A stretch of DNA of 37,805 nt from Patescibacteria group bacterium (GTDB lineage Bacteria > Patescibacteriota > Minisyncoccia > UBA6257): NCBI GenBank assembly GCA_030917555.1, contig JAUPUN010000004.1, forward strand, positions 1 to 37,805. Direction: 5' to 3'. The position numbers were made by a program, and so were the translations under genes. Shown here in pieces: positions 9,434-37,080 of this stretch; position 1 is the first letter of the stretch; each line of letters starts with the position of its first letter. The notes below the pieces were generated by a model. That model saw only the letters and a list, made by a program, of their open reading frames with translations. It searched no databases and was not told where the DNA came from.

Positions 9434-11584
9434 CTAACGTTTTTCTCCTTGCAAGAGCGAAAATGAATCTTCTAATTTAATGGAAAGAAGCTGGGAACTA
9501 TTATCAGGGCCAATAGTCACTCCATAAATTATTTGAGCTGCTGCCATCGTAGAACGATTATGAGTAATAATAATAAACTGAGTATTCTTTCCTAACTCTG
9601 TTAAAATTTTTGAAAAACGTTGGCTGTTATCTTCATCAAGGGCGGCATCAATTTCATCTAGAATCACTAAAGGCGGCTCAGATTGAGTTACTATTGCCAA
9701 TAACAGAGAAATGGCTACCAAAGTTTTTTCTCCCCCAGAAAGCATCTCTAAACTTTTTAAATCAGTTTTAGGAATATCGATTTTAATATCTACACCCCAA
9801 TAATTTTCTTCCGGAACAGCAGCTAAAATTTCATTCTGGGAGTTATTTTCCAAGGTCTGTTCTGCTCTAGATTTTTTAATTTGCTCCAATCTGGCAAATC
9901 CACCTTGAAACATTAATCGAAAATACTTATTAAAATCTTCATTAATTTCTGACAACGATTTTTCAAAAGTGCTCTCGATCTCTTTTGTTAATTGCTGAAT
10001 TAAAATTTTTAAATCACGGGAACTTTTTTCTAAATCTTCTCTTTGCTGAGTTAAAAATTCATAACGCTGAGTTACTTCTTCGTATTCTTTTTTGACATTA
10101 AGATCTTCTGTTCCGATCTCTGCTATTTCCTTTTTGAGTCGGAAAATTTGTTTTTCCAAAGAGATTAAATCTCCTTCACTTGCTAAAGGGGTAGGCTGAG
10201 CTGCTTCAGCTTTTATCTCTTCTAAAGTTAAATCTGCCTCTTTCAACCTTCGTTCGAAATCCTCCAGGCGTAATTTATATTTTTCTAAAAGCAACTCTTC
10301 TCGCTGTTCTTCTTTGAGCAGATTTTCTCTCTCTAATCTAAGATTATTTATTTGTTCAAAATTGCTCCTAAAATTTTGATTTTTTTGGGTTAATTCTGTT
10401 TGAAATTGTTTAAGACTTGCTCCTTTCAGAGCTATTTTCTCCTCTAATTGACTCAATTGTTCTTGCAGTTTTAATATTGCTGGTTTTTCTTTTGGAGAAG
10501 GCGGTTTCAAACAGGAATCCAGACTAATAAGCAGGTCTTTGATTTGCTGATGAATTGTTTCTATTTCTTCTATTTTTAAAAGTTCTTCCAATTTCTTTTT
10601 TAAGTTGCTAATTTCTTGAGCTAAATCCGCTTCAGTTATTGTGATTTTACTACTCACTTCCTGACGGCCTAATTCTCTTAACAGCTCGGATTTTTGATTT
10701 TGAAGTTCAATAATCTCCTGAGTAATTTTTTGAATTTTATTTTCTAAATCAGCATTTTCGTTCTCTTTCAAAGTTACTAACTTACTTTCTTCTTTCTGAA
10801 TATTTTGGGTTAACTTTTCTATTCGCTCCTTAAGTTCAGCTAGCTTTTCGGTTTGCGGTAAATTATCTCTAACTAGTGATTTCCAAAGATAAGTAAAATA
10901 CTGCCTTTCTTTAAGTTTTAATTCCCCTTCAATCTCCTCCCGTCTTTCCCAACGACTAACTTGTCTCTTTAAAGAACGAAGATGAGGTAAAATTTCTTTT
11001 TCTAGAGCTAAACTCTTATCGAGGTTAATATTAGTTTCTTCTAATTTCCGTTCTGCTTCTTCTTTTTTTAACTCTAAGTTTTTTAAACCTAAAATTTCCT
11101 CTAGCATTATTCTCCTCTCAAGAGGAGAAACCAAAAGTAAACTTTCTACGGCACCTTGATTGATAATAGAAAACCCTTTTAAACCAATTTTAGCGCTAGC
11201 AGTTAAATCAATAATATCTTTTAAGCGACAGGGTTTATGATTCAAAAAATAGCTATTTTCGCCAGATCTTTCAATCCTTCTTAAGATGCTAATCTCATTA
11301 TAATCTGAATTAAACAGATGAAGCTGATTATCAAAAATTAGTTCTACTTCGCATAAAGAAGCAGCTGTTTCCTTCTTATTGCCAGCAAAAATTAAATCTT
11401 CTCCTTTTTCTACTCTTAAATTTTTAAAGCTTTGCTCTCCTAAAGCCCAACGAATAGCATCGACAATATTAGATTTTCCAGAACCATTAGGTCCCACAAT
11501 GGCAGTAATTAAAGAGGGCAGGTCTATTACTACCTTCCCTTTAAAAGATTTAAAATTTTTGAGAATTATTTTTTGTAAAAACAC
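9434..11584 (-). CDS. smc: SMC-family chromosome partition ATPase, unusually short, with no recognisable hinge domain
   Basis: N-terminal head has LKNFKSF and Walker A GPNGSGKSNIVDAIRWALGEQS. C-terminal head has LSGGEKTLVAISLLLAI and Walker B LVILDEIDAALD. The track ORF starts at a TTG at 11605, but the GTG at 11584 gives MFLQKIILKNFKSF, the canonical SMC N-terminus, and removes the overlap with rnc. Confidence 0.85.
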   Translation of the reverse strand: MFLQKIILKNFKSFKGKVVIDLPSLITAIVGPNGSGKSNIVDAIRWALGEQSFKNLRVEKGEDLIFAGNKKETAASLCEVELIFDNQLHLFNSDYNEISILRRIERSGENSYFLNHKPCRLKDIIDLTASAKIGLKGFSIINQGAVESLLLVSPLERRIMLEEILGLKNLELKKEEAERKLEETNINLDKSLALEKEILPHLRSLKRQVSRWERREEIEGELKLKERQYFTYLWKSLVRDNLPQTEKLAELKERIEKLTQNIQKEESKLVTLKENENADLENKIQKITQEIIELQNQKSELLRELGRQEVSSKITITEADLAQEISNLKKKLEELLKIEEIETIHQQIKDLLISLDSCLKPPSPKEKPAILKLQEQLSQLEEKIALKGASLKQFQTELTQKNQNFRSNFEQINNLRLERENLLKEEQREELLLEKYKLRLEDFERRLKEADLTLEEIKAEAAQPTPLASEGDLISLEKQIFRLKKEIAEIGTEDLNVKKEYEEVTQRYEFLTQQREDLEKSSRDLKILIQQLTKEIESTFEKSLSEINEDFNKYFRLMFQGGFARLEQIKKSRAEQTLENNSQNEILAAVPEENYWGVDIKIDIPKTDLKSLEMLSGGEKTLVAISLLLAIVTQSEPPLVILDEIDAALDEDNSQRFSKILTELGKNTQFIIITHNRSTMAAAQIIYGVTIGPDNSSQLLSIKLEDSFSLLQGEKR

Positions 11585-11595
11585 AAAGATAAAAA

Positions 11596-12291
11596 TTACT
11601 GCCAACCTTTAAGTTTCAAAGCAGTGTCAGCGGCTTGCAATTCCGCTTCCTGCTTAGAATAACCCTGACCAGTAGCTACTAATTCATCTTTGAGATAGAC
11701 CCCTACTTCAAATTGCTTATTATGATCAGGTCCCCAAGATTTTAAAGTTTTATAATTAGGCGTAATACCTAGAATTTCCTGACTTTTTTCCTGAAAAAGA
11801 CTCTTGGCATCTTTATAAGATGAAGTTTTTAGAATTTCCTCAGTTTTGGGGAAAAAATATTTTTGAATAAACTGGCGGGCTTTTTCTATGCCTCCGTCTA
11901 AATACAAAGCTCCTATTAAGGCCTCGACTGCATTAGAAAGAATATAGGACCGAGGATTTTGAAAATCTTTAGCTTCTCCTTTGGACACTAATAAATATTT
12001 TTCAAGCTGTAGTTGATGAGCTACTGAGAGTAAAGAATCGCTATTAACTAAAGCAGCCCTTAAGCTAGTTAGAGCTCCTTCTTGAAGTTCAGGATATTGT
12101 TGCACTAAATAATCAGCTACTACAAAACCTAAAACTGCATCACCTAAAAATTCTAATTTTTCGTTATGAGGTAATTTCCACTCCCGATGCTCATTTAAAA
12201 AAGAGCGATGGGTTAGAGCTTCAGCTAAGAAATCTAAATTATTAAAAGATAGACCTAACTCTTCACTGACTTGCTTAAAATCTTGAATCAT
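11596..12291 (-). CDS. rnc: Ribonuclease III
   Basis: 231 aa. RNase III signature NEKLEFLGDAVLGFVV plus a C-terminal dsRBD. The rnc-smc order is conserved. Confidence 0.95.
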   Translation of the reverse strand: MIQDFKQVSEELGLSFNNLDFLAEALTHRSFLNEHREWKLPHNEKLEFLGDAVLGFVVADYLVQQYPELQEGALTSLRAALVNSDSLLSVAHQLQLEKYLLVSKGEAKDFQNPRSYILSNAVEALIGALYLDGGIEKARQFIQKYFFPKTEEILKTSSYKDAKSLFQEKSQEILGITPNYKTLKSWGPDHNKQFEVGVYLKDELVATGQGYSKQEAELQAADTALKLKGWQ

Positions 12292-12299
12292 GACTTAAT

Positions 12300-12785
12300 T
12301 TAATTATTTAATTCAGAGGCTTGCCCCTGATTACCCAAAGTTTCTTCTAGTTGTCGATAAATCGTACCCAAGACACCGTTTACAAATCTTCTGGAAGAAT
12401 CACCCCCAAAATGTTTAGCTAATTCTACTGCTTCATTAATAGCTACTTTAGGCGGTACTTCTTTTTTATCGCCAAAAATTAATTCAAAAATTCCTATTCT
12501 TAAAACATTTCTATCAATAATATTAATTTGTTCTAAGGGCCACTCTGGCGCTCCACTCTCGATTAATTTATTTAATTCATCCCAGTGAGCTAAAATTCCT
12601 TGAAGCAACCGTTGAGGATAATCAGTATCTTCTAAACCCCGGCCTAAAGTTTCTAAATTTCTTTCAAAAACTGCTTTAATCTCTTCTAGCTTCAAATTAC
12701 GAAAATCGCCTTCGTAAAGTGATTGCAAAACTATGGAACGACTTAAATGACGAGAACCCATAGCAGTAAAATTATCAAATCCCAA
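12300..12785 (-). CDS. nusB: Transcription antitermination factor NusB
   Basis: 161 aa. [11 protein letters not shown]... and [26 protein letters not shown]. The start codon is TTG (plus-strand caa at 12783-12785). Confidence 0.9.
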
Positions 12786-12786
12786 T

Positions 12787-12868
12787 TTCTAATTTCTAAT
12801 CCGCCAGCTGGCGGATTAGACATTGAGCATTTAGAAATTGATTAGAATAATTAGGTTAATTAGAATAA
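12787..12868. repeat. Second copy of the heptamer/inverted-repeat family, centred on a perfect 26-bp palindrome (12795-12820)
   Basis: ttctaat ttctaat, then ccgccagctggcgg, then attagac attgagc atttaga ... attaggttaattagaa. The palindrome tctaatccgccagctggcggattaga was read directly. Confidence 0.9.
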
Positions 12869-12885
12869 TTTTATTAAGTTTCTAT

Positions 12886-13116
12886 CTATTTATTTTCTAT
12901 TTCTTTTTCTTTGATTTTCTTTTCTTTCTTAGAGAGGCCTCGATAAACATCAATAATTTCTTTTTCCTGATAATAACCACAATAAGGACAGACTCGATGA
13001 GGTACAATTTTTCTGCCGCAATGAGGACATTTTGCCAAATTTAAATTTTTTAGAGCCGAATGAGAACGTCTCTTATTAATCCGTGAACGTGAATGATGAC
13101 GTGCTGGTAATGCCAT
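12886..13116 (-). CDS. rpmF: 50S ribosomal protein L32 with a K/E-rich C-terminal extension
   Basis: MALPARHHSRSRINKRRSH plus the zinc ribbon CPHCG...CPYCG. Confidence 0.92.
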   Translation of the reverse strand: MALPARHHSRSRINKRRSHSALKNLNLAKCPHCGRKIVPHRVCPYCGYYQEKEIIDVYRGLSKKEKKIKEKEIENK

Positions 13117-21811: not shown

Positions 21812-23077
21812 TTAATATTTAAAAAGTGCTTCTTGGTTGGGAGTTTGCTTTAACTCTTGATTTACTTTTACTTTTCCATACTCTCCGTCATAACCTGGTT
21901 CTAAAATAACTTGCCCCATCCTGACTTTGATAATAGCAGTTGCTATTTCTTGAGACGTAACTCGACTTAATTCTTCAAACTTAGCATCTAAAAGGATAAA
22001 AAATTCATTTGAAAAATAACTGATTAAATTTTGATATTCTGTTTCTACCAGCCGAGTTTTTACTTGGCAATTCAAAACATCTGCAATAATTTCTTTTAAG
22101 GGAACTAATTTCTTAAAAGGAATTGCTCCTGGAGGAATCACATCAGGAGGACGATCAGCTAATTCTTCCACTCTTGATAAGACTCCGATAGTTAAAGGTT
22201 TACCACAAACAGGACATCTGCCTTGCACTTTTTGCCGTTCCGAAGGAGACATTCTAACTTGACAAAAACGATGGCCATCATAATGATACTTTCCTTCCTC
22301 AGGAAAAAACTCAATAGTAAAAAGAAAATGCTGAGAGTCTTTTTTCAAAATTGTCTCTCGTAAATTCTCGTAATTAGGTTCGAAATCAAAAACATTAGCT
22401 TCCCGCCCGATATTTGCAGGCGAATGAGCATCGGAATTAGAAACCAAAGCAAATTTATCTAAAGCCGAAATTCTCCAGTTCATGGGAGGATCAGAACTTA
22501 AACCAGTTTCTAATGCAGCTAAGTATTTAGCATTCTCTCCAAAAGCTTCTTCTAAACTATTAAAACCAGATTTGGAACCAAAAACCGCAAACCAAGGAGT
22601 CCAAATGTGAGCTGGAATAAATAAAGCTCTAGGTTCGAGATTTAAAACTAATTTTAAAAGTTCTTCTGAATCTAAGCCAAGAATAGGCCTACCATCAGCA
22701 GCTAAATTACCTTGCCAAGAAAGAGCCTGATTAATTTTTTCTGCTGCCTCAAGGGATGGTAAAACAATCAAATTATGAACTCTCCTCACTTGACCACCTC
22801 GCTGATAAATATTAGAAATTTCCCCTGTCACTACAAATCTTACTTCTTTTTCTGATCCACTATAAAAAGACGCATTTTTTAAACGATAAAAACCCTCTTC
22901 AGCTGGTACTAATTTTTCTTTAAGTTCTTTAAACCATTGAGGATGAGTAAAATCACCGGTGCCTAAAAGATTAACTCCTTTTTTTTGGGCAGCTAAAGAA
23001 AAATGTTCTAAATCACTTTCTTTGGAAGTAGCTCGAGAGTATTTAGAATGAAGATGTAAATCAGCAATAATTTTCAT
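21812..23077 (-). CDS. PHP-domain endonuclease of the Endonuclease Q family
   Basis: 421 aa. Motifs ADLHLHSKYSRATS, GTGDFTHP, PAHIWTPW, SNSDAHSP, GKYHYDGHRFC...CPVCGKPLTIGV and GYDGEYGKV follow the order I recall for Pyrococcus EndoQ. The C-terminus is NQEALFKY. Confidence 0.72.
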   Translation of the reverse strand: MKIIADLHLHSKYSRATSKESDLEHFSLAAQKKGVNLLGTGDFTHPQWFKELKEKLVPAEEGFYRLKNASFYSGSEKEVRFVVTGEISNIYQRGGQVRRVHNLIVLPSLEAAEKINQALSWQGNLAADGRPILGLDSEELLKLVLNLEPRALFIPAHIWTPWFAVFGSKSGFNSLEEAFGENAKYLAALETGLSSDPPMNWRISALDKFALVSNSDAHSPANIGREANVFDFEPNYENLRETILKKDSQHFLFTIEFFPEEGKYHYDGHRFCQVRMSPSERQKVQGRCPVCGKPLTIGVLSRVEELADRPPDVIPPGAIPFKKLVPLKEIIADVLNCQVKTRLVETEYQNLISYFSNEFFILLDAKFEELSRVTSQEIATAIIKVRMGQVILEPGYDGEYGKVKVNQELKQTPNQEALFKY

Positions 23078-27484: not shown

Positions 27485-28477
27485 CTAATTTGTTAAAATT
27501 TTTCTGAGATCTAGAAGCAAGAGTTCTAAAGCTAAACCTGGAGGCAGTAAGCCTCGTTTTATTCTTTCGTCACATAAAACAAGCCTTTGATAGACATTTT
27601 TCAATTGCGTTAAAGAAAATTTTTTAGCTAGCGGCAACATTTTAGTAACTGGATAAATCTTTAAATTAGTTTTTCTGGCAATGTCAGCTACAGAAGATGA
27701 TTGACTTTCTTTAATTAAAATTAAGCTTCGAAATTCAAAAATTATCAAAGAAAAAATATGAAGAAAATTAGTAACCGAATCATCTTTTGCAAATTCTTCT
27801 TCCAGTAATTTAAAAGCACGGCTAAAATTACCTGCCGCTAAATAGTCCAAAAAATTAAAAATATTAGTATTAAAGGGAAGCCAAACATAAGTCTCGAGTG
27901 TTTTTCTGTCAACGAGAGGTAGACCCAATAAAGATAGCTTTTGTAAAACATAATAAAGAGCACCGGTCTCAGAACCAAAACTGAAACTTAACAATTCCAA
28001 ACTTTCAGCTGTCAATCTAAAACCTAGTTTTTTAGCTTCTGCCTCAATCCAATTCAAATAAGCTTTTCCTTTAAGCAAAGGGAACTCTTTAACCTGTTTT
28101 GCTTGCTTTTTTAACCAGGTAAAATTTTTAGTATCTTTAATCTCGCCCTCTTCATAAATAATCAAAAGAATACTTTTAGCGCTAGCTACTTTGCTTTCCT
28201 CGATAACCTCAATGATTTCTTTTTTTAAAGTTGCAGCAGTAGTCAAGAGATTTTTTAAACTGATTATTTTTATTTGACTAAAGAGAGTTATACTACCAAA
28301 AAGTTCTTTTAATTGAGCTGGTTCTAAAGCTGTTTCGAATTTATCCGCAAAATCGAAAGAAAAATAAAAATGATTTTTATTATGGTAAAAATCTTTTAAG
28401 TAATTTAAATATTGATTAGAACGAAAAGAATCAGGACCGTAAATTAAATAAATCATACTTGTTGACAATGAGGACAA
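27485..28477 (-). CDS. holA: DNA polymerase III delta subunit
   Basis: 330 aa. IYLIYGPDSF start, and the length and helical C-terminal half fit HolA. Sequence conservation in this family is weak. Confidence 0.7.
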   Translation of the reverse strand: MSSLSTSMIYLIYGPDSFRSNQYLNYLKDFYHNKNHFYFSFDFADKFETALEPAQLKELFGSITLFSQIKIISLKNLLTTAATLKKEIIEVIEESKVASAKSILLIIYEEGEIKDTKNFTWLKKQAKQVKEFPLLKGKAYLNWIEAEAKKLGFRLTAESLELLSFSFGSETGALYYVLQKLSLLGLPLVDRKTLETYVWLPFNTNIFNFLDYLAAGNFSRAFKLLEEEFAKDDSVTNFLHIFSLIIFEFRSLILIKESQSSSVADIARKTNLKIYPVTKMLPLAKKFSLTQLKNVYQRLVLCDERIKRGLLPPGLALELLLLDLRKILTN

Positions 28478-29340
28478 TAAAAAGTGGAGCGATTGTGATC
28501 CTTTGCTCTCTTAATAATGCTTTGGCACCGAACACATTTCTCTCCTTCTCTCTGATACACTTTTAAACGGGAACTAAAGCTCCCCGGGCTGCCATCTAAC
28601 ATCCGGTATGCTTCGTCTTCAGCTGAAGTACCTTTAAATTTCAAAGCTTCTCCTAAAACCTTTTTTATAGCTGAAAATAACTTGTCTATTTCTTCTTCCT
28701 TCAGCTCTGACGCCTTTTTAAAAGGATTAAGTTTAGCTTCAAATAAAATTTCATTGGCATAAATATTACCAATGCCGCTCAAATATTCTTGATTCATCAA
28801 AACCTGTTTAATCGGGCCCTTCGTTTTTTTAAGAATCTCCTTGAGCCGACTAGCAGTAAAATCTTTTGCTAAAGGGTCAGGACCTAACTTTTGAAAAGTT
28901 TTCTCTTTTAAAAATTCTGACTGAGTTAATAAAACCACCTTAGCAAAACGCCTTCTGTCAGCCAAAACTAACTGTTTTTGCTGTTTTTGCTTTTCCAAAG
29001 TAAAAACCCAATGAATAAAAGTATTCTCTTTGTCTTGATAATAACCCTGCTCTAAAGATAACCATTTCTGATTGCGAAAAAGATAATGTCCCACTAACAA
29101 GTGTCCTGTTAGTTTTAAATGAATCCATAAAATTAAATCTCCTTCCAGATTTAAAAGAATATTTTTTCCTCTCCGCGCTGCTTGCTTGATTTTTTTGCCT
29201 TTTACAAGAGACTGAAATTGAGGCCAAGTAAGATGATTTTGCTTTCTAAAACTATCACTCCAAACATCAATAATTCTCCAGCCCTGGATTTGCTGGTTTA
29301 ATTGCTGAACAATGGTTTCTACCTCTGGTAATTCAGGCAT
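28453..29340 (-). CDS. mutM: Formamidopyrimidine-DNA glycosylase (Fpg/MutM)
   Basis: MPELPEVETIV, with the catalytic Pro2 requiring the ATG at 29338-29340. The track ORF start at 29364 adds 8 spurious residues. C-terminal zinc finger CVRC...CPHCQ. Overlaps holA by 25 nt. Confidence 0.9.
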   Translation of the reverse strand: MPELPEVETIVQQLNQQIQGWRIIDVWSDSFRKQNHLTWPQFQSLVKGKKIKQAARRGKNILLNLEGDLILWIHLKLTGHLLVGHYLFRNQKWLSLEQGYYQDKENTFIHWVFTLEKQKQQKQLVLADRRRFAKVVLLTQSEFLKEKTFQKLGPDPLAKDFTASRLKEILKKTKGPIKQVLMNQEYLSGIGNIYANEILFEAKLNPFKKASELKEEEIDKLFSAIKKVLGEALKFKGTSAEDEAYRMLDGSPGSFSSRLKVYQREGEKCVRCQSIIKRAKDHNRSTFYCPHCQQV

Positions 29341-29365
29341 GATAATAAAGTCAAAAATTTGCACC

Positions 29366-29396
29366 CACCTAAATTTTTTTTAAAAACATTTAGGTG
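29366..29396. other. Hairpin between the histidine kinase stop and the fpg start
   Basis: 9-bp stem cacctaaat/atttaggtg with a 13-nt A/T loop. No clean T-run follows on the minus strand, so its function is unclear. Confidence 0.3.
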
Positions 29397-29449
29397 AGCA
29401 AGAAAGTTAAAAGTCAAAATTATCTAATCTAGCGGGGGGCAAGAGATGG

Positions 29450-30769
29450 TTACTGCGGGGGAAGATAAGCTGGATCAAGAGGTAAAGAAAAAGTAAAAGT
29501 GGAACCCCGGCCAACTATTGATTCGACCCAAATTTTACCACCGTGGTGCTCTACAATATTTTTTGCTAAATATAAACCTAAACCAATACCACTAGTTTCT
29601 TCCTTCATTACTGCTTCTGATCTAAAAAACTTAGTAAACAATTTTGATAAATCCTGGGGTGCAATTCCTTGACCAGTATCAGCTACTGAAATATTGATAA
29701 AAGGCAATTTAGGATCTAATTCTAGTTTAATAGCTACCTCTCCATTTTCTACGTTATACTTAATAGCATTATCTACCAAAATCTCTAGGACTAATTTTAC
29801 TCGCAGTGGATCCATTACAAATGGTTCTAATTTAAAATTAGGCCGATAAAAAATAAGTTTTACTTTCTTTTTTGAGGCAGCTGGCTCAAAATTGGTTAAA
29901 ACGTCTTCAATGATAGGAATCAGATCGGCTTGAGTAAATTGAAAACCAAATTTGCCTTCCTCTATTTGACTCGCAGTTAATAAATCTTCAACCGTTTTTA
30001 AACTTTCTACTACTGCCTCTTGACCTTGCTTAATTAATTTTTCTTGCTCTGGGGTGAGAGGGCCTAGTTCTTTTTTAACTAATAATTCCAAAATCCAAGA
30101 TAAACCAGCTAAAGGAGTCCTTAACTGATGAGCTGCTACTGTAATAAAATCACGCTGAGTTTTTTGTAAAGCTTCATCTTTAGTTAAATCATGAATAATT
30201 TTTAGAAAACCATAATTATTACCATGTTCGTCTACTACTTTAGTAGTCACAATCTCTAGAGTTAATTCCCGAGGTTGATCAAATTTGACCTTAATTTTCT
30301 GAGGATAAGTATCAGCTGATCTTTCTACCACCAAAGGAGCTAAACTAGGAAAAATTAATTTAGTGAGAAAACCATAGCGAGCGTCATTACTTAATTCTGG
30401 CCTAATTACTTTACCAATCAATTCTTCGCGTTTTAAATTGGTAAACTTTTCTAGGGCTGGATTAACCAAAATAATTTCAAAATCATTAGTATAAGAAACA
30501 GCTGGATCATCGATACTATAAATCATGGCGTTAATCTGATTCCTCTCTAAATCCAAGCGGCTGCTAATTTCAATCAAATTGAGAGCAATAACAGTAGCAA
30601 CTAGCCAAACTCCTAGAGCGAGCAGGCTTAAAATTAAAACTACTGTCTCGGTTTGAAACAAAAAAAGAGCTAATAATAATTGACTGATTAATAAAAGACC
30701 AAGAAAAATAAAAGGCAAAAAAGAACTATCGAAAAAATGTTTTTTGAGTTGAGTAAAAAATTTAAACAT
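29450..30769 (-). CDS. Sensor histidine kinase (two N-terminal TM, PAS-like domain, HisKA, HATPase_c). No response regulator in the window.
   Basis: 439 aa. H-box AAHQLRTPL, N-box LVDNAIKYN, G1 DTGQGI and G2 GIGLGL. Confidence 0.85.
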   Translation of the reverse strand: MFKFFTQLKKHFFDSSFLPFIFLGLLLISQLLLALFLFQTETVVLILSLLALGVWLVATVIALNLIEISSRLDLERNQINAMIYSIDDPAVSYTNDFEIILVNPALEKFTNLKREELIGKVIRPELSNDARYGFLTKLIFPSLAPLVVERSADTYPQKIKVKFDQPRELTLEIVTTKVVDEHGNNYGFLKIIHDLTKDEALQKTQRDFITVAAHQLRTPLAGLSWILELLVKKELGPLTPEQEKLIKQGQEAVVESLKTVEDLLTASQIEEGKFGFQFTQADLIPIIEDVLTNFEPAASKKKVKLIFYRPNFKLEPFVMDPLRVKLVLEILVDNAIKYNVENGEVAIKLELDPKLPFINISVADTGQGIAPQDLSKLFTKFFRSEAVMKEETSGIGLGLYLAKNIVEHHGGKIWVESIVGRGSTFTFSLPLDPAYLPPQ

Positions 30770-30781
30770 ATAAATAAGATC

Positions 30782-33373
30782 TTACAGTTCTCCCCAATTG
30801 GAACCTTGTTTCAAATGAACCTTTAAAGGCACTTCTAATTTTACTACTGTTTCCATAATTTCCTGAAGCTGGGAAGCTATCTTTGGTATTATCTCAGATT
30901 TAATTTCTAAAATCAATTCGTCATGAATTTGTAAAACTAACCTGGCTGCCTCAGTTAACTTTTCTTTTACTAAATAATCGTTAATTTGAATCATGGCAAG
31001 TTTGATAATGTCTGCAGCCAGACCTTGAATGGGTAAATTAACAGCTATTCTTTCTTCCTGCCTTCCTATTTGACCTAAAGAGCCGATTAGCGGCAAAAAG
31101 CGTTTTCTTCCAAATTGGGTTGCCACGTACCCTAAATCTTTGGCTTTAGTTAAAGAATAGTCTAAATAATTCTTCAAACCAGGAAAATTTTTGAAATACT
31201 GTTCTTTAAAATATTTCGCTTCTTTTGAACTGATTTGGGCAGTTTCACTTAAGGCTTTCTCGCCCATTCCATAAATAATGCCAAAATTAATTACTTTGGC
31301 TATTCTTCTCATCTCTGGCGTCACTTGTTCCTCTGGCACCTTAAACAAATAGCTAGCTGTTAAGTTATGGATATCTTTGTCCTGATTAAAAGCTTCTTTG
31401 AGATTAGGATCCAAAGAGAGATGAGCTGCCAAACGTAAATCGATCTGAGAGTAATCCAAAGACAGAAAAACAAAACCGGGAGCAGCTTGAAAAGCGCTTC
31501 TAATTTTTTGGCCCCACTCCCCTTTTAAAGGAATATTTTGTAAATTTGGTTCCTCAGAAGATAAGCGACCGGTAGCAGTGCCAGTTTGATTCCAGATAGT
31601 ATGGATTCTTTGAGTTTGAGGATTAATAAAATTAGGCAAAGTCAATAAAAAGGAAGTCTGCATTTTTTTTAATTGGCGATATTCTATAATTAAAGGAATA
31701 ATTGGGTGTTCGCCTTTGATTTTTTCTAATTCGGCTTCATCAGTAGAAGGCTGACCACCACCAGTTTTTTTTAAGGCTCCTGAATCCAGTTGTAAGACCT
31801 CAAAGAGAATTGTTCTCAATTGTTGGTAAGAATTGAGATTAAAATGTTGCCCAGCTAAATTATAAATTTGCGTCTCTAAATTAAGAAGCTTTTGTTGAAT
31901 TTCTTGAGTTAAAGAAGTCAATTGGACAGGATCAACCAAAATGCCAGTCATTTCCATCTGAGCTAAAATCGGAATTAAGGGTTGCTCTATTTTAGTCCAG
32001 ACTTCCTCTAAATCAAGACTGGCTATTTTAGTTTCAATTACATCAGCCAAATTTAAAAGCTGTCCTACATTTTCTGCTAAGGTCTCTAATTTTAATTCTC
32101 TAAAAAAAATCTTATTTAAAGTAGCCAATTCATAATTTTTCCTTTCAGGATCAAGTAACCAGCCTAAAATTTCTAAATCCTCAAATTTCAGATGTCGACA
32201 ACAAGGAAATTCTTCGATTAAAACTTTAGCCCCAAGAGTTACCCAGCTTTTCTGTTCCTCCCAAGACAAATTAGACAAGTTAGTTAATTCTTCTAAAGGT
32301 ATTTCAAAAATTAATTGCTCCGGAAAAACAAAAAAAACCTTTTTCTTTTGTCTTTCTCCAAATTTTTTACCTTCATAATTGAAATAAATTCCAATCTTTT
32401 GATGTTCTTGAATTAACTTCGCTAAATTATCCCAAGCTGCTTTAGTGGTAACTCTCTCTACTTTAAGAGCTGGCGAGGTTTTCTTACTTAAAGAGGTAGC
32501 AAACAGTCTTTGGCTGAGACTATTAAAACCTAACTGCTGAAAAAGTGGTAAAAGTTTTTCTGAGGAAGGGGGCTTCAGGGTGGCATCTTCTAATTTCACT
32601 TCCAAATCTATCTTTTGATCAAGGGTAACCAATCTTCGATTAAAAAAAGCTTGCTCTTTATTTTGAAGCAAAGTTGTCCTTAGTTTGGGGCTTAATTTTT
32701 GAGCTAAAGGAGTATTCTGTTCTAAATTTTTATAAAGGTTTTCTAAATCATGAAAATCTTGAATCAATTTCAGGGCAGTTTTTTCTCCAATACCAGCTAA
32801 ACCTTTAATATTGTCGGAAGGGTCTCCTCTCAAAGCTTTTACCTCAGGCAATTGCTCTGGCAATAATTGATATTTTTCTTGAATCTTTTTTAGATCATAA
32901 ATAATTTCATCTTTCAGGCCTTTCCTTAAAGTATAAACTTTAGTTCTTTCGTTCACTAACTGCAAAGTATCTAAATCTCCAGTTAAAATAATAATTTCTA
33001 AATCTGGACCTTGAAACTTTGAAGTTAGGACAGCAATTAAATCATCTGCTTCATAACCGCCTTGGGCTAAAACAGGAATACCCCAATTAGTTAAAATCTC
33101 TTTAATAATTTTAATCTGTTCATAAAAATTATCCGGAGCTTTAACTCTTTGTGCTTTATAATCATGATATTCTTCATGCCGAAAAGTGGGTTGAGCCGAA
33201 TCAAAAGTAGCAATGACATAGTCTGGCTTTAATTCGTCCAAAACTTTAAGTAAAACTAAAAGAAAACCATATACTCCATTTACTATTACTCCTTGAGGAG
33301 AAGTTAAGGGAGGTAAAGCATGATAAGCCCGATGTGCCAGGGCGTAACTGTCAATAAGAATTAATCTCTTCAT
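30782..33373 (-). CDS. polA: DNA polymerase I
   Basis: 863 aa. N-terminal 5'-nuclease domain (LILIDSYALAHRAYHAL, GDPSDNIKGLAGIGEKTA). Polymerase motif A LSLDYSQIDLRLAAHLS, motif B RRIAKVINFGIIYGM and motif C LQIHDELILE. Confidence 0.95.
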   Translation of the reverse strand: MKRLILIDSYALAHRAYHALPPLTSPQGVIVNGVYGFLLVLLKVLDELKPDYVIATFDSAQPTFRHEEYHDYKAQRVKAPDNFYEQIKIIKEILTNWGIPVLAQGGYEADDLIAVLTSKFQGPDLEIIILTGDLDTLQLVNERTKVYTLRKGLKDEIIYDLKKIQEKYQLLPEQLPEVKALRGDPSDNIKGLAGIGEKTALKLIQDFHDLENLYKNLEQNTPLAQKLSPKLRTTLLQNKEQAFFNRRLVTLDQKIDLEVKLEDATLKPPSSEKLLPLFQQLGFNSLSQRLFATSLSKKTSPALKVERVTTKAAWDNLAKLIQEHQKIGIYFNYEGKKFGERQKKKVFFVFPEQLIFEIPLEELTNLSNLSWEEQKSWVTLGAKVLIEEFPCCRHLKFEDLEILGWLLDPERKNYELATLNKIFFRELKLETLAENVGQLLNLADVIETKIASLDLEEVWTKIEQPLIPILAQMEMTGILVDPVQLTSLTQEIQQKLLNLETQIYNLAGQHFNLNSYQQLRTILFEVLQLDSGALKKTGGGQPSTDEAELEKIKGEHPIIPLIIEYRQLKKMQTSFLLTLPNFINPQTQRIHTIWNQTGTATGRLSSEEPNLQNIPLKGEWGQKIRSAFQAAPGFVFLSLDYSQIDLRLAAHLSLDPNLKEAFNQDKDIHNLTASYLFKVPEEQVTPEMRRIAKVINFGIIYGMGEKALSETAQISSKEAKYFKEQYFKNFPGLKNYLDYSLTKAKDLGYVATQFGRKRFLPLIGSLGQIGRQEERIAVNLPIQGLAADIIKLAMIQINDYLVKEKLTEAARLVLQIHDELILEIKSEIIPKIASQLQEIMETVVKLEVPLKVHLKQGSNWGEL

Positions 33374-33376
33374 AAA

Positions 33377-33829
33377 CTAAAAACTAAATTCCAAAATCCT
33401 AGTCCGAGCACCTGTTATTTTAAATTTAATTGTCCAATGCTTTTTAGGCAAACTGGATTTGATTTTGTTTCCCCATTCAATAAAGATAATATTTCTGGGG
33501 TCAGCTAATAAATCACTAAAACCCAAAATATCCAAATCTTGAGGATGTTCTAAACGATAACAGTCTAAATGCCACAAATAACTAAAATTTTTGCTTTTGA
33601 GAGGAAATCTTTTCATTAAAACAAAAGTAGGACTAGCGATTTTTTCGTGACAATGAGCTCCGTGAGCTACTCCCTTCAGAAATTCTGTTTTTCCAGCGCC
33701 CAAATTGCCTTCCAAGGACACTACTAAAGCTCCTTTCTTTAAGGGCTTGCTTAGTAATAAACTTTTAATAAAACAGCTGGCGATTTGCTGAGTTTCTTTG
33801 GGACTAGCACTAAGAATAGCATATTTCAT
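33377..33829 (-). CDS. tsaE: tRNA t6A biosynthesis ATPase TsaE (YjeE)
   Basis: 150 aa. LEGNLGAGKTEFLKGVA, SPTFVLMKRF and HLDCYRL. Confidence 0.88.
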   Translation of the reverse strand: MKYAILSASPKETQQIASCFIKSLLLSKPLKKGALVVSLEGNLGAGKTEFLKGVAHGAHCHEKIASPTFVLMKRFPLKSKNFSYLWHLDCYRLEHPQDLDILGFSDLLADPRNIIFIEWGNKIKSSLPKKHWTIKFKITGARTRILEFSF

Positions 33830-33853: not shown

Positions 33854-33888
33854 TATAAGTTGTAAGTTATAAGTTATGTGTTATAATG
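33854..33888. repeat. Five heptamers (TATAAGT TGTAAGT TATAAGT TATGTGT TATAATG) in the divergent tsaE/pilB spacer
   Basis: Read directly. The last two units form the extended -10 box. Confidence 0.8.
33879..33887 (+). promoter_or_regulatory. Extended -10 box TGTTATAAT for the PilB-like gene
   Basis: Exact TGnTATAAT match. It overlaps the first ATG of the track ORF (33886), so translation more likely begins at ATG 33892 or 33898. Confidence 0.4.
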
Positions 33889-36801
33889 AAGATGCTTATG
33901 GATGATCTAACTCAAAAAAGAGAGGAAAAAATCAAAAAGCTCTGGCAAGAATCTAAAGAAAGAATGGCTGAAGATTTAGCAGCTAAACATAATCTGCTTT
34001 ATGCTGATTTAAAAAAAATAAATATTTCTCCGAGCGCTTTGGAGATCTTACCAGAAGAAAAAGCTAAAGAAGCAAACGTAGTAGTCTTTGAAAAAATTGG
34101 TTCTAATCTCAAAATTGGCCTTACCAATCCTGAAAACCCTAAATCTCTCCGAGTAGTTGAAGAATTAAGAGCCCAGAATTATAAACCAGTAATTTATGTT
34201 ATTACTGAAGAAAGTTTAAATTGGGCCTGGACTTTTTATCGCTTCATTAAACCAAGACTTGAAAAAATTACTAATTCTTTGGATGTTTCTCAAACTAAAA
34301 CAGTTGAATTTTCTGCTTTAAACCAAGAATTATTAAATTATCCTGCTGAAGAAGTAACTACTTTAGTATCTCTTATCTTAAAATCAGCCATTAATATTGA
34401 CGCTTCTGATCTCCATTTGGAGCCACAAGACCAAGGGGCTTTAATTCGTTTTCGGGTTGATGGCGTTCTTTATGAAGTAGCTGAAATTGACACTAAAAAA
34501 TACCAAACAATTTCTTCCCGCTTAAAACTTATTTCTGGTTTAAAACTAAATATCACTAATAGCCCACAGAATGGTCGCTTTTCTATCAAAAATGAGGACA
34601 CTATTTTTGATGTTAGGGCTTCTAGTTTACCTAGTCCCAAAGGAGAATTTCTTGTCTTTCGACTTCTCAATCCCAAGCGCATGGCTTTTAGTTTAAGTGA
34701 CTTAGGTTTTAAAGACAGAGATTTGCAACTAATTAATAACACTCTTTCTAGTCCTAACGGCCTCATCTTAGTAACTGGGCCTACTGGTTCTGGTAAAACT
34801 ACTACTCTCTATGCCCTCTTAAAAGCTAAGGTTTCAGTAGGCATTAAAATCATCACTATTGAGGACCCAATTGAATATCGCTTGCCAGGCATTAATCAAA
34901 CCCAAGTTTCTAAAGATTACACCTTTGAAACAGGCTTAAAATCAATTTTACGGCAAGATCCAGATGTGATTATGATTGGTGAAATGCGAGACCCTAATAC
35001 TGTGAGTACTGCTTTGCAAGCCAGTCTCACTGGTCATTTAGTCTTCTCTACTTTGCACACTAACGAAGCCAGTGGTACCATTGATAGGCTTTTAGAACTA
35101 GGGGCAGACAGAAATATTTTGCCTAGCGCTTTAAGGCTCATTATTGCTCAACGTTTAGTCAGAAGACTCTGTCCTGATTGTAAAGAAGCTTACGAACCCT
35201 CACCAGAGCTTCAAGAAAAAATTCAAGAAGCATTTGCCATTCTTTCTCCCAAAAGCAAAGTAAAAATTCCTCAAACAATTCCTACTCTCTATCGAGCCAA
35301 AGGTTGCGAAAAATGCCATTTTCTGGGCTATCAATCACAAATCGGTCTTTTTGAAACTTTACCCATTACTCCCAGAATTACTAAAGAAATTTTAGCTCAA
35401 GCTAGTAATGACAACCTCAGAAAAACTGCCATCGATGAAGGAATGATTCCTTTATTTCATGACGGACTCTTAAAAGTGTTGGAGGGTATTACTTCCTTAG
35501 AAGAAGTTACTAGAGTAGCTGGAGATATCGAATATGTAGAAAAAAATTATCAGGAATTATTTTCTCAAACTCTTTTAAGAGGAATCAAACTTACTGCCGC
35601 AGATGAGAAGGAAATTGAAAAAATTTTAAAAACTAATCAAAACTGGTCAGAATATCTCAAAGATAAACCTACTTCCCAACAAATCGCCTATCTCATAGGC
35701 GGAGCTTTAAAAGCACGAGCTACTGATTTACATTTTGAACCAGAGGAAAATCAAATCAAAATCAGACAAAGAATTGATGGCGTCCTTTCAGAAATGGCAA
35801 GTTTTGATTTAGCTGAAGCGCCAAGGCTTCTTAATGAAATTAAAAATTTAAGTGGTTTGAACACTGAAGAGACACAAAAAATTCAAGAAGGAAGATTTCG
35901 AGTTAGTTTTCCTAACAGAAATTACGATATTAGGCTTTCCATTCTTCCGAGTGGCTATGGCGAAAGCGCAGCTTTAAGGCTTTTGGGTAATGAAACTCAA
36001 ATTTTAGATTTAGAAAATTTAGGCCTGTTACCTTCTAGTCAAGCTAAAATTGAAAAGCTTCTGCAAAATAAAATGGGCTTAATTTTAGTAACCGGACCAA
36101 CTTCTGCTGGTAAAACTACTACCCTTTTTGCTTTACTTAAGGAATTAAATCAGCCCGATGTCAAAATTATTACAGTAGAAGACCCAATTGAATATCGCTT
36201 GCCTGGCGTAAATCAAACCCAGATTAACGAAGAAAAAGGTTATACTTTTAGCAGCGCCATTAAAACTCTCTTGAGACAAAATCCTAATATCTTATTAATT
36301 GGAGAAATCAGAGATAAAGAAACAGCAAAAATAGTCTGGCAAGCCTCATTAACCGGACACTTAGTACTCTCTACTGTTCATGCTAATGATACTCAAGAAA
36401 TTATTCCTCGTCTTAAAAGTTTAGGCATTGAGCCTATTGATTTGATGAAAGCTTTGGAAGGGGTAATTAGCCAAAGATTAGTCAGAAAATTATGTCCTGC
36501 TTGTAAAATTGCAGCACCGGTTCCCCAAGAATACTCTTCTCTTTTTGAAAAAGCTCTTCAAAAATATCCGGAATACCAAAAACAATTCCAACCTCCTTAT
36601 CAAATGTTTCTGCCTCAAAAATGTGAACAGTGTAATTTTACTGGTTATCAAGGCCAAACTGGAATTTTTGAAATTGCTACTCAAAAAGAATTAGAAAACT
36701 TAAAGCAAATTTCTTATCCTACTTTATTAGATGATGCTTTAATTAAAGTTCTTTTAGGCGTCACTTCTTGGGAGGAAGTAAAAAGAGTTTTAGACGTTTA
36801 A
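33886..36801 (+). CDS. Tandem-fused double PilB/GspE-type (type II/IV secretion, type IV pilus assembly) ATPase
   Basis: 971 aa. Module 1 has an N-terminal GSPII_E_N-like domain, DLHLEP..RFRVDG, GPTGSGKTTT (aa 298), IITIEDPIEYRLPGINQTQV, DPDVIMIGEMRD, TGHLVFSTLHTN and CPDC...CEKC. Module 2 has DLHFEP..RQRIDG, GPTSAGKTTT (aa 737), IITVEDPIEYRLPGVNQTQI, NPNILLIGEIRD, TGHLVLSTVHAN and CPAC...CEQC. The true start may be 33892 or 33898. Confidence 0.88.
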   Translation: MKMLMDDLTQKREEKIKKLWQESKERMAEDLAAKHNLLYADLKKINISPSALEILPEEKAKEANVVVFEKIGSNLKIGLTNPENPKSLRVVEELRAQNYKPVIYVITEESLNWAWTFYRFIKPRLEKITNSLDVSQTKTVEFSALNQELLNYPAEEVTTLVSLILKSAINIDASDLHLEPQDQGALIRFRVDGVLYEVAEIDTKKYQTISSRLKLISGLKLNITNSPQNGRFSIKNEDTIFDVRASSLPSPKGEFLVFRLLNPKRMAFSLSDLGFKDRDLQLINNTLSSPNGLILVTGPTGSGKTTTLYALLKAKVSVGIKIITIEDPIEYRLPGINQTQVSKDYTFETGLKSILRQDPDVIMIGEMRDPNTVSTALQASLTGHLVFSTLHTNEASGTIDRLLELGADRNILPSALRLIIAQRLVRRLCPDCKEAYEPSPELQEKIQEAFAILSPKSKVKIPQTIPTLYRAKGCEKCHFLGYQSQIGLFETLPITPRITKEILAQASNDNLRKTAIDEGMIPLFHDGLLKVLEGITSLEEVTRVAGDIEYVEKNYQELFSQTLLRGIKLTAADEKEIEKILKTNQNWSEYLKDKPTSQQIAYLIGGALKARATDLHFEPEENQIKIRQRIDGVLSEMASFDLAEAPRLLNEIKNLSGLNTEETQKIQEGRFRVSFPNRNYDIRLSILPSGYGESAALRLLGNETQILDLENLGLLPSSQAKIEKLLQNKMGLILVTGPTSAGKTTTLFALLKELNQPDVKIITVEDPIEYRLPGVNQTQINEEKGYTFSSAIKTLLRQNPNILLIGEIRDKETAKIVWQASLTGHLVLSTVHANDTQEIIPRLKSLGIEPIDLMKALEGVISQRLVRKLCPACKIAAPVPQEYSSLFEKALQKYPEYQKQFQPPYQMFLPQKCEQCNFTGYQGQTGIFEIATQKELENLKQISYPTLLDDALIKVLLGVTSWEEVKRVLDV

Positions 36802-37080
36802 CAATCGCTCACCCCTTTCTCTTTCGCTCAAGCTATTTCGCCAAAGACAACAATCGTTCAGAGATATTTGCCTTTCGAAAACGTCCAAAATCCCCAGCGA
36901 TGATTTTGGACTCGCGCAAGCTCCTCGCTCCCCCTCACTTGGAAAGCACTGGGCTTCGCCCCTCATTAGAAACAGATCAATTTTATTGTTTTTTGGTAAT
37001 AGCCAATCTTTTTCAAGTGAGGGGCTTCGCCCTTAAAGATGAAATCTTGTGCTTTCCAAGTGAGGGGTGAGCGATTGTTA
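36799..37080. repeat. 282-bp G+C-rich nested inverted-repeat element (MITE-like or structured RNA) spanning the convergent spacer from stop codon to stop codon
   Basis: 17-bp perfect terminal inverted repeats: taacaatcgctcacccc (36799-36815) and ggggtgagcgattgtta (37064-37080). 19-bp inner inverted repeat: 36931-36949 with 37049-37067. Third pair: 36951-36965 with 37018-37032. 10-bp hairpin at 36883-36911. Confidence 0.6.

Follow-up and report, generated by a model that had tools for sequence, protein, structure and literature searches.

Characterised ATPases of the PilB/GspE/PilF type (5tsg, 5tsh, 6olj, 5it5, 5oiu, 4kss and 4pht) are single-module proteins, as the original prediction for this locus had assumed, and no tandem chain is present among the solved PDB structures. 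Each half of the protein described here has the full N2D and CTD fold of these enzymes and all of their motifs, but the chain differs from them in carrying two motors, separated by a fixed linker of ~50 aa, and one N1 domain per two modules. In the literature searched we found no description of such a tandem PilB form, which appears never to have been described before. Thermus thermophilus PilF (6f8l, a 913-residue chain) is likewise a long PilB-type protein derived from internal duplication, presumably one that multiplied the N-terminal GSPII domains and left a single ATPase module. The 6f8l chain matches each half of the tandem protein in one stretch only, indicative of a single module in PilF, whereas the tandem doubles the motor itself. 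Two rings from this ATPase superfamily are combined in the competence type IV pilus machine of Vibrio cholerae, where PilT and PilU form coaxial rings at the base and the distal ring needs the proximal one to dock (bioRxiv 10.1101/2025.10.14.680967). These two retraction-class ATPases are made as separate chains and lack the zinc motif, whereas the tandem joins two modules of the extension class in a single chain, for which stacking is conjectural. Further afield, KaiC (CI/CII) and the type II AAA+ proteins (ClpB, p97, NSF) originated when a P-loop module that forms hexamers was duplicated internally, and they provide precedents for stacked rings, whilst F1 alpha3beta3 is a precedent for alternating sites in one ring. 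These belong to other superfamilies or branches, and we know of none that acts on a pilus platform.

Architecture and class of the tandem gene

The window, a 37,805-nt stretch of a Patescibacteria contig, carries at 33886-36801 (+) one uninterrupted ORF of 971 aa, comprising two full PF00437 modules and a single N-terminal MshEN-type domain. Its features are as follows.

33860..33887, + strand: promoter-like site TTGTAA-16-TATAAT with a TG-extended -10, a consensus match only
33886..36801, + strand: tandem PilB/GspE-type ATPase gene, 971 aa, coordinates including the stop; the alternative ATG at 33898 gives the 967-aa database form
33886..34221, + strand: N1 domain, GSPII_E_N/MshEN-type, aa 1-112; PF05157, present once; top Foldseek match 4pht, a GspE-GspL complex
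34222..34335, + strand: pre-N2D segment of module 1, aa 113-150, to which the inter-module linker is homologous
34336..34725, + strand: N2D of module 1, aa 151-280, DLHLEP...RFRVDG, conserved Arg residues kept
34726..35523, + strand: CTD of module 1, aa 281-546, with RecA-like ATPase core, zinc subdomain and C-terminal helices
34777..34800, + strand: Walker A of module 1, GPTGSGKT, aa 298-305, K304 invariant
34849..34905, + strand: Asp box of module 1, IITIEDPIEYRLPGINQTQ, aa 322-340, EDPIE at 326; holds the nucleotide-similar stretch
34978..34992, + strand: Walker B of module 1, GEMRD, aa 365-369, E366 invariant
35029..35058, + strand: His box of module 1, TGHLVFSTLH, aa 382-391, H384 and H391 invariant
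35170..35316, + strand: tetracysteine zinc motif of module 1, C429 C432 C474 C477, 4/4 Cys invariant
35524..35673, + strand: inter-module linker, aa 547-596, mostly helical, with invariant G546 at its start
35674..36045, + strand: N2D of module 2, aa 597-720, DLHFEP...RQRIDG
36046..36798, + strand: CTD of module 2, aa 721-971, with C-terminal helices reduced in length and conservation relative to module 1
36094..36117, + strand: Walker A of module 2, GPTSAGKT, aa 737-744 (family consensus GPTSSGKT), K743 invariant
36166..36222, + strand: Asp box of module 2, IITVEDPIEYRLPGVNQTQ, aa 761-779, EDPIE at 765
36301..36315, + strand: Walker B of module 2, GEIRD, aa 806-810, present in 119/120 best homologues
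36352..36381, + strand: His box of module 2, TGHLVLSTVH, aa 823-832, H825 and H832 invariant
36493..36633, + strand: tetracysteine zinc motif of module 2, C870 C873 C913 C916, 4/4 Cys invariant

The start codon is ambiguous by 4 aa, the database gene call (P0001) being 967 aa long and beginning at ATG 33898. As the promoter-like site overlaps the first ATG, translation probably begins at ATG 33892 or 33898, which would leave only a very short leader. Downstream of the gene lies a hairpin for which Rfam returned only sub-threshold miRNA-precursor noise.

Two complete modules in one ORF had been predicted, with a GSPII_E_N-like domain on module 1 only and two PF00437 matches expected from an HMM search, and the profile searches bore this out. 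PF00437 (T2SSE) scored 712 bits (cut-off 24.9) in two stretches of the 971-aa protein, and PF05157 (MshEN) 27.1 bits (cut-off 23.1) at aa 36-114 alone, once per chain and absent from module 2. The Walker A, Asp box, Walker B, His box and CxxC motifs all lie exactly where the original prediction had placed them. The NCBIfam GspE and PilB models each match the protein twice, and the two halves share 40 % identity over 400 aa (E = 6e-92). By hhalign the inter-module linker resembles the pre-N2D segment (aa 550-614 versus 113-175, probability 93.7 %). An AF2 monomer model gave a pLDDT of 88, with TM-scores in Foldseek (normalised to target) of 0.93 to PilF 5oiu and 0.92 to PilB 5tsg; its pTM was 0.53, at which the predicted inter-domain geometry is not confident and the planar and stacked ring arrangements considered below are unreadable from the model. 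The architecture is that of a motor unit, consisting of pre-N2D linker, N2D and RecA-like CTD with its zinc motif, duplicated in tandem, the second copy having lost the N1 docking domain.

All four motifs of the PilB/GspE family (Walker A, Asp box, Walker B and His box) occur in both modules; the chain departs from the family, whose members have one motor module each and assemble as homohexamers, in having two per polypeptide. Each half scored 241-305 bits against solved GspE, PilB and PilF structures and 91-118 bits against PilT. Judged by these scores and the CxxC...CxxC motif, both modules are assignable to the PilB/GspE extension class and not to the PilT/PilU retraction class. The whole protein scored 780 against TIGR02533 (GspE; cut-off 630) and 764 against TIGR02538 (PilB; cut-off 676), totals that are inflated by the summing of two modules and do not by themselves establish an equivalog-level assignment of either module alone. 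The ComGA model NF041000 scored 498 bits, over its cut-off of 300 and far under the GspE and PilB scores, so that ComGA is not the best-matching subfamily. The c-di-GMP motif of MshE-type ATPases is a tandem RLGxx(L/V/I)(L/V/I)xxG... at the extreme N-terminus of MshEN; no RLG-type motif was noticed when the N-terminal 60 aa were read by eye. The N1-equivalent domain of GspE binds GspL, and the single such domain of the tandem protein may bind a partner likewise.

Conservation of both modules and history of the duplication

The original prediction had proposed a hunt for the same architecture in related genomes, and it proved neither rare nor genome-specific. It is common to at least 174 protein clusters (90 % identity), all named ones belonging to Parcubacteria/Patescibacteria, and about 13 full-length representatives remain at 50 % identity. 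A junction-spanning search of 1.84 billion representatives returned 14 full-length tandems; the taxonomy of distant representatives was mostly uninformative, few of them carrying names. The best 120 matches are all full length (925-1030 aa; 964-1030 aa save one) and 39-75 % identical to the window protein. A scan of GTDB species genomes with a single protein, using peptide patterns that were too specific, found just three tandem loci and supplied single-module outgroups.

These data bear directly on whether the gene could be an artefact, created either by a false join during assembly or by reading through a pair of adjoining pilB genes. The modules do share short nucleotide-similar stretches (described below), and a related single-module sequence (P0184) resembles a module-1/module-2 chimera, so that collapse or recombination at such stretches is possible. 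Against this, the at least 174 clusters are independent and derive from NCBI, JGI, ENA and Logan assemblies, with some contigs of 250-570 kb; the linker is constant at 50-52 aa in all of the best 120 homologues; the two halves have co-diverged, with H1-H1 and H2-H2 distances (first and second modules, respectively) correlated at r = 0.93; and a locus at which separate pilB and pilT genes are neighbours (L010) looks quite unlike the tandem. We consider an artefact of either kind to have next to no probability, and an assembly join was rejected as effectively refuted by family size and the constant linker.

Gene conversion between the modules was also considered and rejected. A 45-nt stretch coding for the Asp box (34864-34908 versus 36181-36225) had been reported to differ at only three positions; we counted five mismatches (40/45 nt identical) and saw no sign of recent exchange. 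Identical residues of the two halves share the same codon 50 % of the time gene-wide, in relatives the Walker A or His-box region contains 45-nt windows that are equally similar (35-40/45), and the H1-H2 distance within one protein (1.01) is close to that between proteins (1.04). The likeness is explained by amino-acid constraint and codon bias, with gene conversion unneeded.

The claim that both catalytic sites are intact, with no dead half, withstood comparison across the family. In the best 120 homologues K304/K743, E366/E807, H384 and H391/H825 and H832, all eight cysteines and the N2D arginines of both modules are invariant. Mean column identity was 0.70 for CTD-1 and 0.65 for CTD-2, and 0.60 and 0.59 for the two N2Ds. 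Every residue needed for catalysis or zinc binding is retained in both modules, under equally strong constraint. One module might nevertheless be regulatory or structural despite intact motifs, for example binding nucleotide without turnover, as do NSF-D2 and the F1 alpha subunit. Consistent with this, H2 evolves somewhat faster (mean pairwise distance 0.80 versus 0.67 for H1), its Walker A is mostly GPTSSGKT instead of GPTGSGKT, and conservation is lower in its zinc subdomain and C-terminal helices (0.57 and 0.54 versus 0.67 and 0.65). One-dead-one-live tandems also exist, as in P0134, which arose independently, the Walker A of module 1 has degenerated to GSGTT (K to T). A purely structural module would be expected to drift, however, and the invariance in both modules of the N2D Arg, the Lys of Walker A, the Glu of Walker B and the two His of the His box speaks against this explanation, which we regard as improbable.

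The proposed phylogeny of the two halves gave a mixed outcome. In a first NJ tree H1 and H2 were each monophyletic and sisters to one another (bootstrap 35, 80 and 83 of 100), but after 122 single-module representatives were added the tree no longer separated H1 and H2 cleanly; with internal branches this short, NJ does not settle the duplication history. Among the 'single' sequences that nest within H2, some are mere fragments, such as P0142 on a 1.9-kb contig. Three tandems fell off the H1/H2 split: the halves of P0131 (74 % identical) pair together, as do those of P0136 (55 %), whilst both halves of P0100 lie inside the H1 clade yet are not sisters. P0134 (L015), from a high-GC, sulfatase-rich bacterium, also has two T2SSE modules per chain, but its halves group together and with non-CPR PilBs, and a PilC-type T2SSF domain takes the place of N1. 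The trees suggest that most tandem proteins descend from a single ancient duplication that covered pre-N2D linker, N2D and CTD, with at least two further tandem duplications in the same group and one more, that of P0134, in an unrelated bacterium.

Genomic context and an apparent second PilB

The tandem gene stands alone among housekeeping genes in nine contexts. In the window, all other ORFs of at least 100 aa were housekeeping or lacked a Pfam match, and a six-frame scan for the prepilin motif gave no match. No pilC (T2SSF), pilM/N/O or pilin gene was found in the window, nor within 10 kb of the tandem gene in L001, L002, L004, L016, L017 and L021; a pilin-like N_methyl gene lies three genes from the tandem gene in L017. 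In L022, comFC and pilM are found at a distance of 9.4 kb, and their order matches that at the start of the pilM...pilB-pilT-pilC cluster of a relative (L023), which served in place of L022's own pil cluster. The exact L022 PilM protein was not found in the protein database, its relatives being truncated at an in-frame TGA. The gene is therefore not part of a pilus or T2SS gene cluster, and since pilC, pilM and pilin genes are absent within 10 kb in eight of the nine contexts, it is homology that ties the tandem to a pilus machine. Recurring neighbours include ruvB, directly downstream in three lineages, ruvC, polA, fpg, xseA, a comEA-like gene and comFC.

Canonical PilBs of Parcubacteria pil clusters fall outside the H1/H2 clade, so that the tandem modules differ from them in phylogeny as well as in lying away from pilC, pilM and pilins. 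One tandem (P0029) and one single-module protein (P0333) share their sources (JGI, Logan and ENA) and a longest contig of 299,657 bp, yet are only 37-40 % identical. The identical contig size points to one genome, and one relative's contig thus appears to carry both the tandem gene and a canonical PilB, which would make the tandem an additional paralogue and not the sole pilus motor of the cell. The comFC and pilM genes of the tandem-bearing contig L022, arranged as in L023, point the same way. The description of the gene as solitary consequently stands for the window, which contains no pilus gene, but not for the relative with an apparent canonical PilB. We are highly confident in the core statement that the tandem is real, conserved, equipped with two active modules and an extra paralogue.

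Possible ring arrangements and implications

Both modules probably hydrolyse ATP. The single N1 domain would dock the chain to a partner of the PilM/GspL type, within a machine resembling a type IV pilus and encoded elsewhere in the genome, and the tandem would act as a second, lineage-specific assembly motor. The case for any ring arrangement draws on precedent and topology. Tentatively, and with modest confidence, we prefer six chains forming two coaxial, stacked hexameric rings. Module 1 would form the membrane-proximal ring, bearing six N1 domains, and module 2 the distal ring, held by six 50-aa linkers. GspE-Hcp1 fusions (4ksr, 4kss) resemble such an arrangement in that a ring-forming unit sits on the GspE C-terminus of a protein solved as a hexamer, with GspE at chain residues 24-402 and Hcp1 following it; unlike the tandem, they are artificial, have a very short linker and a partner that is no ATPase. 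The fusion geometry of Lu et al. 2013 is reportedly coaxial. Stacking is also favoured by the retention of N1 on module 1 only, and by descent of the linker from the segment that leads N2D towards N1 in single enzymes. Against stacking, the distal ring would be out of direct reach of the PilC platform, and the equal conservation of both catalytic sites fits a planar ring at least as well.

In that planar alternative, which is the chief competitor, three chains would form one six-module ring, (H1-H2)x3, with only three N1 domains and with one H1 and one H2 always at opposite positions. The original prediction took the tandem to imply such a trimer-of-tandems pseudo-hexamer; given the stacking precedents and 4ksr/4kss, a two-ring hexamer is at least as plausible. 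If the ring followed the C2-symmetric PilB cycle, one site of each kind would fire per step and neither module could decay, exactly as the retained catalytic residues and near-equal conservation would have it. A fresh tandem duplicate could join a ring through existing interfaces, which would explain the repeated fusions (P0131, P0136 and the non-CPR P0134). Both twofold and threefold symmetry are in the family repertoire, PilB having been solved in C2 CCOCCO and PilT in C3 OCOCOC (6olj, 6ok2, 6ojy), and by our own estimate from predicted helices the ~50-aa linker could reach a neighbouring module. On the other hand, the natural tandem ring P-loop ATPases known to us (KaiC, ClpB, p97, NSF and EccC) stack and do not alternate; the N1 docking domains would be halved whilst the co-resident canonical PilB keeps six; and the linker, leaving the distal C-terminal face, would need to turn back to reach the neighbour on its N2D side. 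We consider the planar ring a serious but somewhat doubtful possibility.

On either the stacked or the planar arrangement the tandem might be a naturally asymmetric pilus motor, a planar (H1-H2)x3 with two non-equivalent kinds of site or a covalent pair of rings, one driving the other, although we hold this to be unlikely. Such a motor could merge the roles of separate ATPases, for example extension with DNA uptake or retraction. The recurring recombination, repair and competence genes in the neighbourhood are a weak lead toward a role in DNA uptake.

Parcubacteria are tiny symbiotic bacteria, and in the Patescibacteria type IV pili are regarded as key to attachment to hosts and to living off them. 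In many Parcubacteria a pilus ATPase of a third type is retained amid housekeeping genes; it is apparently unstudied, and its tandem architecture is hidden by the current labels 'GspE/PulE family protein' or 'PilB'. A natural covalent PilB pair bears on how the six sites of a ring are coordinated. If planar, it would allow every second site of a PilB ring to be mutated genetically, without engineered linked subunits; if stacked, it would be the first extension-type double ring, a covalent counterpart of PilT-PilU.

Two PilB/GspE modules in one reading frame

The tandem gene encodes 971 aa without interruption, and by every sequence criterion its product is a member of the T2SSE/PilB superfamily. 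Pfam HMM searches returned two matches to PF00437 (T2SSE; 712 bits summed), as the original prediction had anticipated, and a single match to PF05157 (MshEN/GSPII_E_N) at aa 36-114, in agreement with its assignment of an N1-type domain to module 1 only. The NCBIfam GspE and PilB models each matched two stretches of the protein. A regular-expression scan reproduced all motif positions previously read from the sequence, and two complete PilB/GspE modules in one ORF were thereby confirmed by Pfam, NCBIfam and motif scan alike.

Tandem gene and motifs located in the window protein by regular-expression scan
33886..36801, plus strand: tandem ATPase gene
Walker A: aa 298 and 737
EDPIE: aa 326 and 765
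Walker B: GEMRD at aa 365, GEIRD at aa 806
TGH: aa 382 and 823
CxxC: aa 429, 474, 870 and 913

Modules 1 and 2 were 40 % identical over 400 aa (E = 6e-92). Solved GspE, PilB and PilF chains scored 241-305 bits against each half and PilT only 91-118 bits; no tandem chain was present among the PDB matches to either half. An AlphaFold2 model that drew on 120 homologues had a mean pLDDT of 88.2 and a pTM of 0.53, so the arrangement of the modules relative to one another was not confidently predicted. The modules of the model superposed on PilF (5oiu) and PilB (5tsg) with target-normalised TM-scores of 0.93 and 0.92, respectively, and the best E-values were obtained for 4pht, GspE in complex with GspL, over approximately 490 aligned columns, more than one motor module.

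A 45-nt stretch corresponding to the Asp box (34864-34908 versus 36181-36225) had been described as differing at three positions between the halves; the actual count was five. Across the gene, identical residues of the two halves share an identical codon 50 % of the time, and relatives contain 45-nt windows at Walker A or the His box that are just as similar, so recent exchange between the halves need not be invoked. The database gene call is 967 aa long, implying a start at ATG 33898 and leaving the N-terminus uncertain by 4 aa. A promoter-like site with an extended -10 (TGTGTTATAAT; region 33860-33898) reaches to 33887 and overlaps the first ATG (33886); the tandem-gene mRNA may be leaderless or carry only a very short leader.

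Extent and origin of the tandem family

The best 120 database hits were all full length (925-1030 aa, all but one 964-1030 aa) and 39-75 % identical to the window protein. Named hits were labelled 'GspE/PulE family protein' or 'PilB' and came from the Parcubacteria group, Minisyncoccia, Paceibacterota, Moranbacteria and the Patescibacteria group. Further searches added nine and then 45 tandem clusters, including a Falkowbacteria protein (UniRef 'AAA+ ATPase domain-containing protein') and a Wolfebacteria fragment, so that the architecture sought in related genomes was found in a total of at least 174 clusters at 90 % identity. When a 171-aa query spanning the junction was searched against 1.84 billion 50 %-identity representatives, 14 full-length tandems and a few fragments were recovered, and all other hits lay on one side of the junction only. 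In the 120-sequence alignment the inter-module linker measured 50-52 aa in every member, with only 46 % sequence conservation. An assembly join was excluded by the size of the family and the constant linker.

The same alignment bore out the claim that both catalytic sites are intact. The Walker A lysines (K304/K743), Walker B glutamates (E366/E807), His-box histidines (H384, H391, H825 and H832) and all eight cysteines were invariant, and conservation was similar in modules 1 and 2 for both the CTD (0.70 versus 0.65) and N2D (0.60 versus 0.59) domains.

With five single-module outgroups and a PilT root, module 1 (H1) and module 2 (H2) sequences were each monophyletic and sisters of each other (bootstrap 35, 80 and 83 of 100), and H1-H1 and H2-H2 pairwise distances were strongly correlated (r = 0.93). 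Together these results indicate that most of the family goes back to a single ancient fusion, the two halves of which have since co-diverged. The tree became less clear once 122 single-module representatives were added; a phylogeny of the halves, as originally proposed, supports a single old fusion with few outgroups but is blurred by wider sampling. Profile-profile comparison aligned the linker (aa 550-614) with the stretch just ahead of the first N2D (aa 113-175) at 93.7 % probability, indicating that the duplicated unit comprised the pre-N2D segment, N2D and CTD, with the second copy lacking N1.

Several proteins depart from this pattern. The halves of tandems P0131 and P0136 (L016 10001-12985) are 74 and 55 % identical, respectively, against a family norm of approximately 37-50 %; each half has the other half of the same protein as its nearest relative, and, measured by HMM envelope, the linkers are shorter, at 34-37 aa. 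Both proteins belong to the same group as the family, and their halves appear either to stem from more recent, independent duplications or to have been homogenised. P0134 (L015 10001-13144, GCA_964384625.1) is an independent tandem T2SSE protein that does not come from Patescibacteria. Its contig has a GC content of 62 %, is rich in sulfatase genes and also carries CBM9 and BatA/MoxR genes; an ECF sigma/anti-sigma pair lies immediately upstream of the P0134 gene. In P0134 a PilC-type T2SSF domain replaces N1 at the N-terminus, the module-1 Walker A reads GPTGSGTT (Lys to Thr) with module 2 intact, and the halves group together, apart from the Parcubacteria family. P0184 (L019 763-2424) is a single-module PilB; a pilin-like N_methyl/Laminin_G_3 gene comes next on its 3.4-kb contig. 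Compared with tandem P0100 it is a chimera, with approximately 80 % identity to H1 across the first ~160 module alignment columns and 62-95 % identity to H2 beyond them. It arose either as a natural reversion, when the modules recombined, or through collapse of the assembly at a conserved stretch. The single-module PilB P0138 (L020 5191-6918) clusters with tandem-type modules, and its gene sits not in a pil cluster but in a conjugation/T4SS-like set comprising PrgI, a TraC-like gene and a VirB4/TraG-type P-loop ATPase.

Gene neighbourhood and relation to pilus genes

The window has a GC content of approximately 34 % and, besides the tandem gene, holds housekeeping genes only: uppS, rpoC, rpoB, trmD, khpA, an SMC-like gene, rnc, nusB, ileS, smpB, infC, rplT, a ClpB-like gene, rtcB with archease, holA, fpg, a histidine kinase, polA and tsaE. 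The last of these precedes the tandem gene, and a Mur-ligase gene on the opposite strand comes after it. No prepilin motif was found in any frame of the window, and the description of the gene as solitary is therefore correct for this window.

Housekeeping genes surrounded the tandem gene in all nine contexts examined (the window, related loci L001, L002/3, L004/5, L016, L017, L021 and L022, and the close relatives L006/7). In four of the nine, tsaE lay within three genes; ruvB was directly downstream in three (L004, L016 and L021), with yebC and ruvC also present in L004 and L021 and a ComEA-like HHH_3 protein and xseA in L004. Upstream of the tandem gene, holA, fpg and polA occurred both in the window (27485-33829) and in L001, whilst L022 displayed a PIF1 helicase, a PD-(D/E)XK nuclease and comFC around it. 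The recurrence of recombination, repair and uptake genes may be due to chance in small genomes or may hint at a role in DNA uptake. L022 alone had a pilM gene less than 10 kb away, with a comFC-like gene in front of it.

Between the converging stops of the tandem ATPase and Mur-ligase genes is a 282-nt intergenic region (36799-37080) of nested inverted repeats, with a perfect 18-nt pair that includes both stop codons (36799-36816/37063-37080) and a perfect 19-nt pair (36931-36949/37049-37067). Its folding energy is -113 kcal/mol (z = -9.6); it matched no Rfam family and has no second copy in the window. An analogous long inverted repeat, AACAATCGCTCGTCTTTTCTTCTGCTCATT ... AATGAGCAGAAGAAAAGA, directly follows the stop codon in L001, a 73 %-identical relative. 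Candidate identities for the repeat are a bidirectional terminator, a structured RNA and a MITE-like insert, and a 100-aa ORF within it (36768-37070) is probably spurious.

In L022 (GCA_964475745.1; 30.5 % GC), the tandem gene (10001-12985) contains one in-frame TGA, read as Trp in the database protein; the column of the tandem alignment at this codon is variable and does not separate Trp from Gly. An in-frame TGA is also present in pilM (22432-22985), 9.4 kb downstream, and database relatives of this PilM end at 125-127 aa, at the same point. These TGA codons suggest that UGA is reassigned in the lineage, with genes shortened by standard gene calling.

A related contig, L023, begins like L022 and continues with pilM ... 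pilO, PilB (580 aa), PilT (357 aa), PilC and a pilin. Searching with its PilB retrieved P0333, a single-module PilB of 584 aa. P0333 matches the tandem P0029 (62 % identity to the window protein) in its sources (JGI, Logan and ENA) and in the length of its longest contig (299,657 bp). Identity between P0333 and either P0029 module is only 37-40 %, and 13 such canonical PilBs formed their own clade, outside that holding all H1 and H2 modules. Clusters of pilBCDMT have been reported in published Paceibacteria genomes (PMC9763046), and pil genes are co-localised in many CPR genomes (PMC6744442). From this one contig-length match and synteny, together with the separate canonical clade and the published clusters, the tandem protein is most likely an extra paralogue, distinct from the pil-cluster PilB.

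Possible working arrangement and significance

Each module of this extension-class protein carries a complete, strongly constrained catalytic and zinc-binding set, and each chain has one N1 and one helical linker of fixed length. Judged by sequence, both modules would hydrolyse ATP; N1 would dock the protein to a PilM/GspL-type partner, and the motor would power the building of a type IV filament, the remaining components of which would be encoded at other loci. The original prediction placed three chains in one six-module ring, (H1-H2)x3. Opposite positions would then always hold one H1 and one H2, and the C2-symmetric PilB cycle (6olj) would engage one site of each kind per step, which would account for neither site having decayed. 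We consider this planar ring possible, at roughly one chance in three.

Known natural tandem duplicates of ring P-loop ATPases (KaiC, ClpB, p97, NSF and EccC) are stacked. By analogy, the tandem protein may form a hexamer of two coaxial rings, which we put at a little under even. Such stacking would retain six N1 domains per particle, and the linker derives from a segment that leaves the N2D face in single enzymes. A GspE with a C-terminally fused ring protein has been solved as a hexamer (4ksr/4kss), with GspE ahead of Hcp1 in the chain. On precedent, N1 number and linker descent, stacked rings are at least as plausible as the planar trimer-of-tandems and are slightly preferred here; the planar arrangement is possible but is not required.

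A full-text search of papers readable without a subscription found no description of a natural tandem PilB or GspE, and none was found in a survey of the type IV filament superfamily (PMC6668835); a CPR protein-family study placed PilB and PilT in one family, leaving architecture uncommented. The possibility that this is already a common, described subfamily thus holds for how widespread it is but, in the literature searched, not for its description. Public databases already list the tandem proteins, under generic names. The protein lacks both the one-module-per-chain layout and the gene-cluster setting of characterised members and is still recognisable as a member of a well-known superfamily. 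It offers a natural tool to probe site coordination in PilB-type rings, and its motor architecture, which is conserved and seems not to have been described before, occurs in a bacterial group for which pili are believed to be important.
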